Below are positions 18,071 to 26,865 of a DNA stretch of 42,261 nucleotides, piece by piece (positions within the stretch are counted from its first letter, which is position 1; every line of letters begins with the position of its first letter). Origin of the DNA: Candidatus Auribacterota bacterium (GTDB lineage: Bacteria > Auribacterota > JAFGBW01). Both the position numbers and the translations under genes were made by a program. The stretch spans positions 1-42,261 of the forward strand of contig JAFGBW010000138.1 in NCBI GenBank assembly GCA_016932965.1. Direction: 5' to 3'. Below the pieces are notes generated by a model that saw only the letters and a list, made by a program, of their open reading frames with translations, made no database searches and was not told where the DNA came from.

Positions 18071-21000
18071 CTATGAGATGGCTTCCTGTTGAGTCAAATG
18101 GGTTACAAGGGGAATAAATGAAGAAATATCCTCTATATCTTTGAGGTAGTCTAACCATTGAAATTCCTGATTGAATGAAATATCGTAAGGTATATTCAAC
18201 GGTTCTAGCAAGGTATTTTGAAGAGGCAGGATTTGAATCTTTAAAGGAAGGATGTGAGTATTGATATCCATTGGGTTGCTGGTATTGTCCGAACCAAAAA
18301 AAGCATAGGCATTGGGATAAAAAAGGATATGATCCGCGTCATAATAGCCCCCATGAGAATAATACAGCGATGTTTCACTGTCCCGAATCATTCCTAAAAA
18401 TCCGACGTTGTTATCATTGATTTGTTCCTTTTGAGACAGGATCTGACCATAAGGTGAATAAACATATTTAGCTGTGATCACGCCGGCAGGATTGCTGATA
18501 TTGATGACCGAACCAAAAGCGTCCGTATGATAATAACGCAATTCTTTTCCATCATAGGAAAAAAGCAACACATTTCTTTGATAGTCATAAATGTATTTGA
18601 CCAGACTTTTTCCCGTGGATGAAATCACTTCAATCAGGTTTCCATACGGATCATAAACAAAAAGCGACGTCCGGTTATCATAGATCATTGAAGCGCGGTT
18701 TCCATTGGGTAAATACTGGTAAGTGTAAATCTCGCCCTTTTTATTTTTAAAAGTTTTCAGCTGTTTGAAGGATGTCCACTCATATTCCTCGTATGAGCCT
18801 TCTGAACACAAGTATTGCAGACAATTTGAAGAATTAAATTGAAAGATTTCGCAAGCCTTGGGATGCACATTGAAAACGAGCACATCGTTAATAGTGCTGC
18901 CGGAAGTCAACATTCCTTTAAAAGAAAAACGGTTGGGGCCGGGTGTGATCGGATAATTATCAAAAGAAAATGAGGATGATTCATGCAGCATTTGCCCTAC
19001 GCCGTTGATTTCCATGAAATTAAATTTTCCCAAACTGATCTTACCCTGAACACAAATGGAATTGATCGGATTCTGTCTTGAGCTGTCCAGCATGGAAAAA
19101 TTATTATTCATAGCATCATATTCATACTGGATACTGGTATTGTTCATCTTATCCATGCCGGTGACCGTTCCAGTGTCGGTCAATTTATATTGAATAGAAT
19201 CCACAGACTGAATCGTGTATTCGGAAATATGATCATGGGAATCATATTTAAGTTGAATCACTTTACCGTCATCGCTTCCGGCCACTATTTTTCCATCCTT
19301 ATAATAAAAATTGCATTCCCGAAGTGCTACTCCGGCATTGTCTGTAATCGACAATGTAGTCAAACGACCATCTTCATCATGTCCTTCATTTTGAAAAATT
19401 CCGTTAGGAAAACAAACCTCAACGTTCTGTTCTTGTTCCTGGTACCGGAACCGCACAGGATTGGAATTCTGATATTGGACGGATTCTAATTTTCCTGTTT
19501 TGTTGTACTGATAGGAAGTTTTTGTTCCGTCACTGTATTGAATGAAATATATTTTTGAAGAATCCGGAGCATACTTGAAATGATATTTCATCACCATATT
19601 GATGTTCATATCGGTCAAGCGTCCCTGATGATCATATTCGTAAGTACGCAAATCCTTCTCGACGGCAGAACTTTTCAATAAATTACTATGCGGGACATAT
19701 TCTATTTTTCCGCAAACTCCATCGGAAGCGACAAAATCACTCATACGTCCCTCTCGATTGAAATAGACTACGGAATTCTGATCCAACCTGATCGAATAAA
19801 GCTGCCCTGATGAGCCATAAGAGTATTTTCTATTGAAAGAGCCACGGTTTGTGATGGCAACAATACGACGCAGTTCGTCCAGTTCCGCTGATAAAATCCC
19901 ACCCTGGTTAGAACGCAAATCAAGGGTACGGTTATCATAGTTTACTTTTTCAGCCTTCAATTTACGGGAAAAACAGGGCAAATCACTGGAAGAGGAAGAA
20001 AACGTTTTGAGATCGAAATACGTCCTGCCGTTGGGAAAAATCAATTCAAAAAGATCGCCTTTTTCATCATAATTCAGCTTATAGATGGAATTAAAATAAT
20101 CACGCGCCTGCATCAATTTGCTGTTTTTCCAGGAAAAATAAGACTTTTGACCTGAAGGATGCCGCACGCATGTGATCAGGCCTTTGGCATTTCTTTCCAG
20201 AGTATACTGATCATTATTTCCAACCTTGATCTGGTGAATATTTCCCTGGCTGTCACGAATAAAATCCACACTGCCTGCTTCCCTGTTTTCAGAGATGACC
20301 AGCCCGTTTTTAATGTTTTTTTCAAGAACGGGAATTCCGTTCAGAATCACTTTATTTAATATGTTCCATGTTTCATCGTAAGTGAACTGATAGAAATCCT
20401 TGCCGATTTTCTTTGAGATTAAATTACCTTTTGAATCATATTCAAAGGAAATATCAGCATCCTTATTATTGGTGAAAACCAGAATCCTGCCTTTTTCATC
20501 AAATGTGTAATCCAGCTTTTCACCGGTTTTATTGAGTGTATAGTGAAACGGATCTATGTTCTCTATCCAGAAATTATTGCCGTCCCGGTTCAATTTGATG
20601 ATGTTTTTTCCAAAAGAAATACTAAAGAAATGATTTTTCTCCGAAACGGAACACAATTTTCCCATCAGACCGTATTTCAATTCTATTTCATGGGAAGGAA
20701 AAGAAAGATGCGTGATCCGGTGAGGGAACAGAGGATGATTTCTCTGAACACTAAAAATGACCTCTTTATTATCGGAACGAATGGCAGAGAGAGCATTGTC
20801 TCCATCATACTCGAATCGATATTGACTTTCTGGATTCTGAAGAGAACTGATGCTTCCTTGTTCATTCCATTGAATCGTGATTTTTTCGTTAAAATTATTT
20901 TGAATTACAACCGGTTTCCCTTTTTCATACTCATAATACAGAGCATTTCCCATGTCGTCAAAATGCTGAACAAGCCGGTAAATTCCATTCTTCCATAACT

Positions 21001-26100: not shown

Positions 26101-26865
26101 GTTTTTATCCATGAAGTCCCTTTTCTGGTCCTCGGAAATACGGGCCAGATTGAATTGATAGAAATTTTGGATGTATTCAGGAGATAAGGACTCGTTCAGA
26201 ACATAACATTCGTCAATGACACCTGTTAGACAATCAGCCGCACCACCGAAGAAGAGATCCCCTGCCGGAATACCATTTATGCAAACCACCTCGCCCAGCT
26301 TTTCCCCGTCCATATAAAGAGAAACCTTCTTTTTTCCGGATTCATGCGTAAAAACGATATGATGCCATTGTTGCACAGCTAATTTTTTCTGTTTGGAAGT
26401 CTGCTGAGGAACAGGATCATTTTCATTCCTGACTTCAAGATAAAGCGATCCATCCTCTTCTTTGATATGAAGATAATACTCCTTTTGATCATTTTTTCTA
26501 ATGCTGAAAAGGGTCTGTTTTCCCAAAGAAAACGGTTTGATCCAGAAAAGCACCGAAGTACTTTCATTCGAATTCAATGTGGAAGAAAAAGGAACCATCA
26601 AGGGGCCTAAGTCAGGATTCGTTGCAATCCCCCAGCCGAATTTTCCGGTCGTAAATGAGGAATGCGTACCCCGCTTTTTCAGGTAAGCGATATTCTGAAA
26701 ACCGCTTTGATCCTGAACAACCTTCCCCTTTCCCTCCTCAAAATTATAGAAAGCGACTATGTGGTTTGAAAAAAAAGAAGAAGCATTTTCAGAATCACCA
26801 GAACAGACATTGGAGCTTAAAAAAAAGATGCTAATTCCAATAGAAAAAAATATAAATCTTTGCAT
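23125..26865 (-). CDS. Secreted giant protein with four LamG (concanavalin-A-like lectin, Laminin_G_3-type) domains, a long Pro/Ser/Thr/Val-rich linker and a C-terminal beta-sandwich-like domain
   Basis: Signal peptide: MQRFIFFSIGISIFFLSSNVCSG. The four LamG_3-type endings are:
- WHHIVFTHESGKKKVSLYMDGEKLG...GVIDECYVLNESLSPEYIQNFY
- WQLCSLIYRRNENKLELYQDTEKV...GKLDEIKVYAKALTMDEISKEY
- WQHIVVTYQYETNIVRLYVNGTL...FDGTLDDLRIYASFFNPEEIQTLY
- WQNVVISYDSESKSFYFMKNNRL...ILDEMKFYRYAF
The linker runs roughly from PSEVAMVTPPEIKAVEPSPG to PDRPDRPDRIQEKTPSSP. Confidence 0.8.
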   Translation of the reverse strand: MQRFIFFSIGISIFFLSSNVCSGDSENASSFFSNHIVAFYNFEEGKGKVVQDQSGFQNIAYLKKRGTHSSFTTGKFGWGIATNPDLGPLMVPFSSTLNSNESTSVLFWIKPFSLGKQTLFSIRKNDQKEYYLHIKEEDGSLYLEVRNENDPVPQQTSKQKKLAVQQWHHIVFTHESGKKKVSLYMDGEKLGEVVCINGIPAGDLFFGGAADCLTGVIDECYVLNESLSPEYIQNFYQFNLARISEDQKRDFMDKNSLKMYFPLDEKTKEVPKNYVSGTFTAAVSGYGIRWDEGIVSGSLVFSSNKDKMTVEEYPADTFSSDFSVTMWVYPHSFEEKIKLLSCFSPDNNKLFFLFGLDDKYLYTAMGDGEQWETVKSMKKMELNTWQLCSLIYRRNENKLELYQDTEKVASFSLTITRPALSFPIRIGYGIKTETFTGKLDEIKVYAKALTMDEISKEYGLINQPLFQSPRASTKEMFPSSKKMIAYYPFDYDSPLYITDYSNAGHVAYFKDRLIALFNEGYSEGGLDLNGDKGAMIIPASYYFDYLKDVTISMWIKPHSFGDRRKIFARHDTDNLKQLLFLGENQGRIYFGLGDGKKYQLFYCDNSLKLGEWQHIVVTYQYETNIVRLYVNGTLSKEEISKNHFAGLADLDTTVGADYKGKEAFFDGTLDDLRIYASFFNPEEIQTLYKKSLSLKVEKKPSEVAMVTPPEIKAVEPSPGLESVPLPPASVAVKAEEKPAVQEAKPAVTPPVSLAESPSTEEIKKPVSERVSPSVPDSKSIVSSTPTASIPKMTVPPTQEGRLQTEVNAPLTVSTETKDSDIPASSFKVDVSSATDLEMRPSSSMITDTKTLSSPVKKSVPDRPDRPDRIQEKTPSSPVEEDHAVADLSDSQKELEQKILNQKRVMQSEMKLRLKNYHELKPIFKLPSKLNKIPFYKSHHLFVHYDFETSDYQSMNDEFNSGVVFSMETSHHDHAMPGILGLGLYIKPYDSVFFSQIELRMPRVFGMEFSLYPMDLSPLTKMAFLTFMTEDKKEIAQFYMHGDRLILNVPDKNTVYDTQLLFIEKAWQNVVISYDSESKSFYFMKNNRLLKAIPFPQLFPSRFSLCVGKWQNRLTTEFILDEMKFYRYAFKEETDFPTPPQNPVMMIQEGKKIKGSEFNVLLFCENATEFMVCYHPEFVGGKWEPYKHQVPLKTKMEGGDQTLYCKFKNRFNLESQSVSVTYSWEGEDHSKIQFINPLRDSSIPGKR
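24262..24288. repeat. Perfect 3x tandem 9-mer TCTGTCTGG inside the LamG gene (encodes PDRPDRPDR on the minus strand)
   Basis: Read directly: tctgtctgg tctgtctgg tctgtctgg at 24262-24288. It is in frame, being a multiple of 3. Confidence 0.9.

Follow-up and report, generated by a model that had tools for sequence, protein, structure and literature searches.

A four-gene locus with a predicted membrane-anchored Rhs/YD cocoon, lacking autoprotease and polymorphic toxin, in a deep uncultured bacterial lineage

YD/Rhs cocoons are known almost only as toxin containers (Rhs, Tc, WapA and bacterial teneurin-like proteins), the well-known exception being the animal teneurin receptor. Here, we describe a locus on contig JAFGBW010000138.1 of assembly GCA_016932965.1, analysed as a window of 42,261 nt to which all coordinates refer. 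Three tightly packed minus-strand genes encode a secreted protein with LamG domains, a middle protein with two transmembrane (TM) segments, which we call the adaptor, and a membrane-anchored YD/Rhs protein; a divergent gene on the plus strand encodes a Wzy_C membrane protein ending in TPRs. The trio keeps its order in every other lineage recovered, the Wzy_C-TPR gene recurs beside it, and the YD protein has lost the residues by which canonical Rhs proteins release a toxin. We favour the reading that this is a lineage-restricted four-gene cell-envelope module and not a toxin system, a reading that we hold tentatively and that falls a little short of probable.

The YD protein (18071-21628, minus strand) has 1185 aa when read from its ATG and 1187 aa when read from an alternative TTG start at 21634 (18071-21634). 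Hydropathy gives it a single TM anchor (aa 19-37, nt 21518-21574) and hence a type II topology, and Pfam and NCBIfam report RHS_repeat (1.8e-14) and YD_repeat_2x (2.5e-16), which bears out the N-terminally anchored YD-repeat protein proposed in an earlier, sequence-only reading of this DNA. Rhs_assc_core matches weakly, at 21.6 bits against a cutoff of 32.5. Searched against the PDB, a profile of six orthologues retrieves Rhs cores linked to type VI secretion systems (T6SS) at 2e-30, with teneurins and bacterial teneurin-like proteins scoring weaker. In the AlphaFold2 (AF2) model, residues 72-1100 consist almost throughout of beta-hairpins, confident locally, which delimits a shell at aa ~72-1100 (nt 18329-21415, minus strand). 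Foldseek aligns ~1090 columns of the model with structures of Rhs cores (E 2e-47).

Compared with canonical Rhs proteins, the YD family keeps the core up to '...ETxLYY..GYYDxD', beyond which neither the segment that bears the first catalytic Asp nor DPxGL is present. Neither PxxxxDPxGL nor paired DPxG nor the catalytic aspartates occur in any of the eight full-length orthologues examined (8/8), whereas most canonical Rhs matches do carry the PxxxxDPxG motif; alignments to solved Rhs cores in the PDB end at 'YYDAD', ahead of the catalytic pair. Where canonical Rhs proteins have the cleavage motif and a variable toxin, this family has a conserved C-terminal tail of ~83 residues (aa 1103-1185, nt 18074-18322, minus strand; AF2 predicted local distance difference test, pLDDT, below 50). 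Residues P1147, E1155, F1156, W1158 and L1174 of the tail are invariant across six orthologues, and the orthologues share 28-38% overall identity. The YD protein thus reads as an Rhs-type cocoon without the aspartyl autoprotease, in which a conserved tail takes the place of the polymorphic toxin. The earlier suggestion that the shell encapsulates a cargo finds no support here, as the tail is short, conserved and without a release protease. The shell also holds an insertion of ~64 residues (aa ~862-925, nt 18854-19045, minus strand) that is conserved in the six aligned orthologues; it carries the motif EINGxGQ...PGxN...KGxLxSG...FNVHP, is modelled by AF2 with low confidence and, judged by eye from the motif, possibly resembles a small Ig-like domain.

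Among solved structures, the best profile and Foldseek matches are T6SS-linked Rhs cores (P. protegens RhsA 7Q97, Salmonella bongori 8QJB-D, RhsP 8H8A/B and Tse15 8UY4), with which the YD protein shares a single-chain cocoon of ~1,000-1,100 residues and a core kept to '...GLYY..RYYD'. Unlike them, it starts with a plain signal anchor, its locus has no PAAR, VgrG or prePAAR, its catalytic Asp pair and PxxxxDPxGL are gone, its tail is conserved and no immunity gene goes with it: the gene 3' of YD differs in every locus, without a conserved immunity gene. Bacterial teneurin-like proteins (TLPs) are defined by FN-plug, NHL and YD-shell; they carry two DPxG motifs, undergo cleavage, end in polymorphic toxic domains and come with immunity genes, the encapsulated C-terminal domain of BiTLP measuring ~92 aa (Raoelijaona et al. 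2026, PMC13018210). The YD protein is like the TLPs (PDB 9IFO/9PT5) in its shell, in being rare but conserved and in its similarly small C-terminal region, and unlike them in having no DPxG pair, polymorphic toxic C-terminus or immunity gene. NHL gives no Pfam or NCBIfam match in the YD protein, and the model has only ~35 residues from the anchor to its earliest beta-hairpins, too few for a propeller. Foldseek also finds the YD-repeat cocoon fold of Tc TcB-TcC; however, the YD protein is one chain and not TcB plus TcC, no beta-propeller gate, aspartyl protease or hypervariable region was detected, and neither the window nor the related loci contain a TcA-like gene.

In the window open reading frames (ORFs) that were scanned, Pfam found no PAAR, VgrG, Hcp, TcA or TpsB gene and no other secretion domain, and by Pfam the window holds none of the features of contact-dependent inhibition (CDI) systems (TpsB transporter, filamentous haemagglutinin repeats, CdiI). 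Because the cleavage motif and aspartates are lost, the tail is conserved and no immunity, PAAR, VgrG, TcA or CdiB gene is present, the module does not, to judge by its sequences, qualify as a canonical toxin of the Rhs, Tc, CDI or bacterial teneurin-like type. The sequence-only reading had already set Tc, T6SS/Rhs and CDI loci aside and recognised no named system; Pfam scans and alignments agree with the former, and the literature searched contains no named system with this composition, this loss of protease and toxin, or the hyperconserved adaptor domain described below. The component families are known, the combination is new to the literature searched and the distribution is very narrow. 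A known anti-phage defence system was considered and rejected, given that neither the module's four proteins nor the 337-aa protein encoded next to them match any PADLOC model.

The three large minus-strand ORFs (LamG 23125-26865, middle 21631-23121 and YD 18071-21628/21634) and both of the near-spacerless junctions described earlier are present in the sequence. The LamG stop TGA (23127-23125) is followed by 'ctt' and then by the ATG of the adaptor gene at 23121, whereas at the second junction the TTG at 21634-21632 shares bases with the adaptor stop TGA (21633-21631) and the ATG at 21628 lies 2 nt past that stop. The order LamG-middle-YD is kept in nine of nine other lineages recovered (L001 with L002 and L003, L004 with L005, L006, L007 with L008, and L010-L014). 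In five of six loci the LamG and middle genes lie 0-3 nt apart or overlap by 4 nt; between the middle and YD genes the spacing is 2-25 nt, again in five of six. On its own strand the trio is free of terminator-like sites, whose number in the region equals the shuffle expectation. Coupling of the trio is hence supported by conserved junctions of 0-3 nt or overlaps together with the absence of an internal terminator-like site, and the idea that the three genes form a tight unit, recurring as neighbours in this order, has stood up in all lineages recovered, with the junctions mostly kept. The flanking genes vary by locus (PNPase/VanY, PFK/transaldolase, response regulator/LysM, glycosyl hydrolase and others). 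A weak terminator-like hairpin (17960-17947) follows the YD gene, ahead of an Aas-like gene.

The trio is, however, not the whole unit. A gene at 26999-28651 on the plus strand, divergent from the LamG gene and overlooked when a three-gene module was proposed, encodes a membrane protein with Wzy_C (Pfam, 6.8e-10; 39.4 bits against a cutoff of 31.7) and C-terminal TPRs (TPR_2, 3.1e-10); hydropathy gives about 11 hydrophobic segments and then the TPR part. It is divergently placed in six of the six loci that reach far enough upstream. Orthologues in L001, L004, L006, L007 and L010 align with the window protein at 29-44% identity and carry a conserved WAHNExLHxFVEYGFPG motif, and L011 has a Wzy_C gene at the same divergent position. 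As the gene recurs divergently and the trio junctions are kept, we take it as the fourth conserved member, and the predicted functional unit as four genes. The 133 bp between it and the LamG gene (26866-26998) are presumed to be a shared promoter region, with minus-strand sigma-70-like sites at 26931-26902 that are consensus matches only. The protein resembles WaaL, Wzy polymerases and PglL/PilO in being polytopic, in its conserved His-containing loop motif and in its above-threshold Wzy_C match, and differs from them in its C-terminal TPR fusion and its pairing with a LamG/TPR/YD operon.

The LamG protein (23125-26865, minus strand, 1246 aa) is predicted to be secreted, with a signal peptide (aa 1-22) that is its single hydrophobic segment, and its identity as a LamG protein, in the ConA-like lectin superfamily, rests on a Laminin_G_3 match of E 2.9e-70 (235.7 bits against a cutoff of 27.6) with three significant stretches, domains 1-3 at aa ~35-690 (Pfam). 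Four such domains had been proposed. The fourth, degenerate one (aa ~928-1130, nt 23476-24084, minus strand) reaches only 0.089 in the window protein and is supported through orthologues, three of six of which match, the best at 1.5e-8. Between domains three and four lies a low-complexity Ser/Pro/Thr-rich linker (aa ~695-905, nt 24151-24783, minus strand) of ~205 residues with S 15%, P 14% and T 8%, also rich in Val and Glu. Domain four is followed by a putatively beta-rich C-terminal domain ending in ...NPLRDSSIPGKR. Orthologues share 23-33% identity; in the alignment their linkers vary, with similar composition in five of six, and their C-terminal ends are conserved. The carboxy terminus ...IPGKR (IAGNR in two orthologues) is kept at the amino-acid level although its codons vary. 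In the L001 orthologue (6207-10004) the linker is long, repetitive and Lys/Glu/Arg-rich (…EERKRLEEEKRRRMEIERKRKEEELRKQ…), not Ser/Pro/Thr-rich; linker length seems to matter more than linker chemistry. No T9SS-type (type IX secretion system) or other known C-terminal sorting domain on the protein matches in NCBIfam or Pfam. TafC, a haloarchaeal Tat-fimbria subunit with an NCBIfam equivalog model, was rejected as its identity (99 bits against a cutoff of 410); the score probably reflects only the common LamG-type domain.

The adaptor (21631-23121, minus strand, 496 aa) has TM segments at aa 10-28 and aa 307-325 by hydropathy. The positive-inside rule and hydropathy would place its solenoid (aa 38-~300, nt 22222-23010, minus strand) in the periplasm and its C-terminal domain (aa ~365-496, nt 21634-22029, minus strand), which is preceded by a long helix after TM2, in the cytoplasm. 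The solenoid had been called a TPR scaffold, and this holds as far as structure prediction goes: AF2 gives confident helical-hairpin repeats at residues 38-176 (pLDDT 80-92), and Foldseek returns TPR proteins (APC subunits, PilF, LapB), weakly, at E >= 2.5e-3. No Pfam or NCBIfam family matches the full-length protein and no Pfam TPR does so at E <= 0.1, so 'TPR-like' denotes a modelled resemblance. Foldseek reports only this part of the protein because AF2 models the C-terminal domain poorly, from a shallow, nearly invariant alignment. The N-terminal region also matches P0044 (1811 aa, from the representative library) six times and, alone, several proteins of ~630-660 aa; the periplasmic solenoid therefore exists in other architectures as well.

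It is the cytoplasmic domain, missed in the earlier description, that is the most constrained part of the adaptor. In the orthologue alignment the N-terminal two-thirds are poorly conserved and the C-terminal ~130 residues almost invariant; across lineages the C-terminal domain has an amino-acid identity of 0.765 and the periplasmic part one of 0.308, and PheT can serve as a yardstick, with about 50% identity to its nearest relatives. Where residues are identical, the two parts of the adaptor have the same codon identity (0.43 and 0.44). A nucleotide-level constraint, such as an RNA element or an overlapping gene, was rejected on the ground that synonymous codons are conserved to the same degree as in the variable region. 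The pattern points to purifying selection at the protein level that is unusually strong for an unannotated domain. Only one Pfam family recurs, Peptidase_C39, which 10 of 11 members match below threshold (best 2.3e-4); on inspection of the alignment the domain does not have the expected catalytic Cys and His. We consider it probable, on weak evidence, that the domain is C39-like and catalytically inactive; it may be C39-like in fold but not a C39 peptidase. It resembles the C39 domains and C39-like domains (CLDs) of ABC exporters (PCATs, HlyB-type) in being cytoplasmic, membrane-proximal and papain-like, by a sub-threshold match, and differs in sitting on a two-TM TPR protein and not an ABC transporter, with no evident double-glycine leader substrate. 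HlyB-type CLDs lack the catalytic Cys and His, and this analogy suggests that the adaptor domain might bind a peptide and not cleave it. A fused precedent for the association of C39 with Rhs is P0040 (JGI/Logan), a canonical Rhs toxin with PxxxxDPxGL. It carries a Peptidase_C39 domain (Pfam PF03412) N-terminal to the cocoon, preceded by what by eye is a helical-repeat-like region, and by inspection it retains the Cys and His.

The family is rare. In an index of 5.8 billion proteins the adaptor has just 11 relatives, at 40-49% identity, and an exhaustive hidden Markov model search of 1.84 billion representatives yields ~12 full-length members plus three distant relatives of ~20% identity with the same architecture, about 15 clusters in all. 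A metagenome scan found no gene context for this distant subfamily (P0043, P0046, P0047), and an exact-sequence look-up of the adaptor returned no record. Among 185,579 species genomes, one, an 'uncultured bacterium' metagenome-assembled genome (MAG), contains the family. The best matches of the window PheT reach 48-50% identity, including 'bacterium B13(2017)', and the next, in Ca. Aureabacteria and Thermodesulfobacteriota, 36-40%; to judge from these matches the host belongs to a deep, uncultured lineage. It is probably diderm, as LptF/LptG are encoded near the module in L010, a related MAG.

From the predicted topologies, the LamG protein, the adaptor solenoid and the membrane-tethered YD cocoon would meet at the periplasmic face of the inner membrane. 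The cocoon would most likely be a structural or binding element, as the shell is in teneurins. TPR-type solenoids commonly bind short peptide ends. The adaptor solenoid is a likely docking platform, with the LamG ...IPGKR terminus, the YD tail or both as candidate ligands, and docking would keep the lectin-like arm, along with the non-toxic cocoon, at the membrane. The C39-like domain is the most constrained part of the module and would probably link the complex to a conserved protein in the cytoplasm whose gene lies elsewhere. The probable substrate of the Wzy_C-TPR enzyme is an undecaprenyl-linked glycan, which it would either attach or polymerise; the LamG domains may bind this glycan, or the Ser/Pro/Thr-rich LamG linker may receive it. 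A physical complex, peptide docking, a glycan link and roles in envelope architecture, adhesion or sensing are what we infer from the sequences.

Several observations weigh against the envelope-module reading. The predicted shell is confident only locally: the YD model has low global confidence (predicted TM-score, pTM, 0.44; Foldseek TM 0.2-0.3), and since the global fold is unreliable, shell closure, tail position and the presence or absence of an FN-plug are not readable from it. The TPR assignment of the adaptor lacks sequence-profile support in Pfam. Peptidase_C39 scores 16 bits on the window adaptor against a Pfam cutoff of 22, PDB profile searches with the adaptor and with its C-terminal domain return noise only, and hhalign and BLASTP comparisons of that domain with the bona fide C39 domain of P0040 are not significant. 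The Lys/Glu-rich linker of L001 weakens the glycosylation idea. No route across the outer membrane is encoded, which leaves a surface-adhesin role unsupported. All module loci come from one deep lineage, in which common descent, without selection, could account for part of the synteny.

Among the alternatives, the locus might encode a teneurin-like surface receptor for adhesion or recognition, a type II anchored, uncleaved YD shell that engages other cells or a substrate together with a LamG partner and signals through the adaptor to the cytoplasm. The teneurin likeness noted earlier is a fair analogy, in that metazoan teneurins share the type II anchor, the extracytoplasmic YD shell and the lack of autoproteolytic processing (PMC13018210), and the YD protein matches them by profile and Foldseek. 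Teneurins work with lectin- or adhesion-domain partners, LamG domains are classical adhesion/lectin modules and the hyperconservation of the cytoplasmic domain would be in keeping with an output function, but the likeness of the module is one of analogy only. The YD protein sits on what is predicted to be the inner membrane of a probable diderm (LptF/LptG in the related MAG), no outer-membrane export component is encoded, neither Pfam nor NCBIfam gives it an EGF, NHL, FN-plug, ABD or Tox-GHH match, and Rhs cores match far better than teneurins (Foldseek about E 1e-47 vs 1e-35). We regard a surface receptor as unlikely.

Alternatively, the locus could be a protein O-glycosylation unit, in which the Wzy_C-TPR protein is a PglL/PilO-type O-oligosaccharyltransferase for the LamG linker and the other proteins are chaperone-like or unrelated. 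PglL-type enzymes glycosylate Ser in low-complexity Ala/Ser/Pro-rich regions, and the 205-residue linker (S 15%, P 14%, T 8%), with its counterparts in five of six orthologues, the Wzy_C membership with its conserved AHNE...G motif and the strict divergent pairing of the Wzy_C-TPR and LamG genes are all in keeping with such a role. However, linker sequence and composition are not conserved (Lys/Glu-rich in L001), Wzy_C also covers O-antigen ligases and polymerases, among which sequence does not discriminate, and the conserved coupling to the adaptor and YD cocoon would go unexplained. This account has a similarly small chance of being right.

Less probable still is a divergent Rhs toxin locus, in which the ~80-residue tail would be an effector released in a non-canonical way, with LamG binding the target and the adaptor serving export or release. 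The similarity to T6SS-linked Rhs cores over the whole length of the YD protein, a tail within the size range of bacterial teneurin-like C-terminal domains (~92 aa in BiTLP, PMC13018210) and the active C39 peptidase on the canonical Rhs toxin P0040 speak for it. Yet the catalytic aspartates and PxxxxDPxGL are missing in all eight orthologues, the tail is conserved among lineages at 28-38% overall identity, the opposite of a polymorphic toxin, and the locus offers neither a conserved immunity gene downstream nor PAAR, VgrG or TcA. The C39-like domain, moreover, lacks Cys and His and is predicted to lie across the membrane from the cocoon. That there is no functional unit at all, the synteny being inherited within a small clade and the short junctions a product of a compact genome, would fit loci from one deep, sparsely sampled lineage (1 of 185,579 species genomes; PheT 48-50% at best), but is quite improbable, because the flanks differ in nearly every locus while four genes and their junctions persist at divergences (YD 28-38%, LamG 23-33% identity) over which neutral synteny is expected to decay.

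The trio had looked more AT-rich than its neighbours, and the difference is real but small. Its GC is 0.372-0.411 against a window mean of 0.416, with a third-codon-position GC (GC3) of 0.384-0.409, inside the spread of other window genes (for example infC at 0.405 and the ORF at 38201-39691 at 0.386). Horizontal transfer, suggested by the AT-richness, was rejected as GC and GC3 lie within the window spread; by composition the trio appears native to the genome, without sign of foreign origin. The window is chromosomal (recA, infC, rplT, pheST, RNase Y, tRNA-Val).

Downstream of the module, 144 bp from the YD gene, an Aas-like acyl-ACP--phospholipid O-acyltransferase/ligase (15275-17926, minus strand, 883 aa) fuses acyltransferase, acyl-carrier and AMP-binding domains. 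Further downstream on the same strand lies a signalling cluster (9063-15223) with an FHA and Ser/Thr kinase gene (13706-15223), a helix-turn-helix (HTH) and PilZ protein gene (12695-13444) and a gene for a 1211-aa protein that joins a Ser/Thr kinase to a repeat region of about 10 WD40 matches (9063-12698); the latter two genes share 4 nt. The Aas-like, FHA-kinase, HTH-PilZ and kinase-WD40 genes are not conserved partners of the module elsewhere. Beyond them, one gene (1274-2740, minus strand) joins a cyclic-nucleotide-binding domain to a D-2-hydroxyacid dehydrogenase, an unusual regulatory fusion, with a lactate permease gene (2762-4237, minus strand) directly upstream. On the other side, the Wzy_C-TPR gene is adjoined by a gene (28710-29723, minus strand) for a 337-aa protein with several hydrophobic segments and no Pfam or NCBIfam family, and the ORF at 38201-39691 (plus strand) encodes a 496-aa protein that likewise has no Pfam or NCBIfam family. 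A tRNA-Val (GAC) at 30104-30180 (plus strand), upstream of infC and overlapped by a mechanical TTG-start ORF at 30133, is the sole Rfam/ARAGORN match in the window.

Read as an envelope module, the locus is a testable case of a YD shell that serves something besides toxin delivery, and the contrast of ~76% and ~31% identity within the adaptor points to a conserved partner of its cytoplasmic domain. A bolder version, which we consider doubtful, is that it forms a non-toxic prokaryotic YD-shell receptor complex, with a multi-LamG lectin, a Wzy_C-made glycan and a TPR-TM-C39-like adaptor that connects it to the cytoplasm; the Rhs cocoon on the inner membrane would have turned from a carrier of toxins into a structural or ligand-binding element. 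If true, it would be an independent bacterial case of the toxin-to-receptor transition behind teneurins and a new kind of trans-envelope machine.

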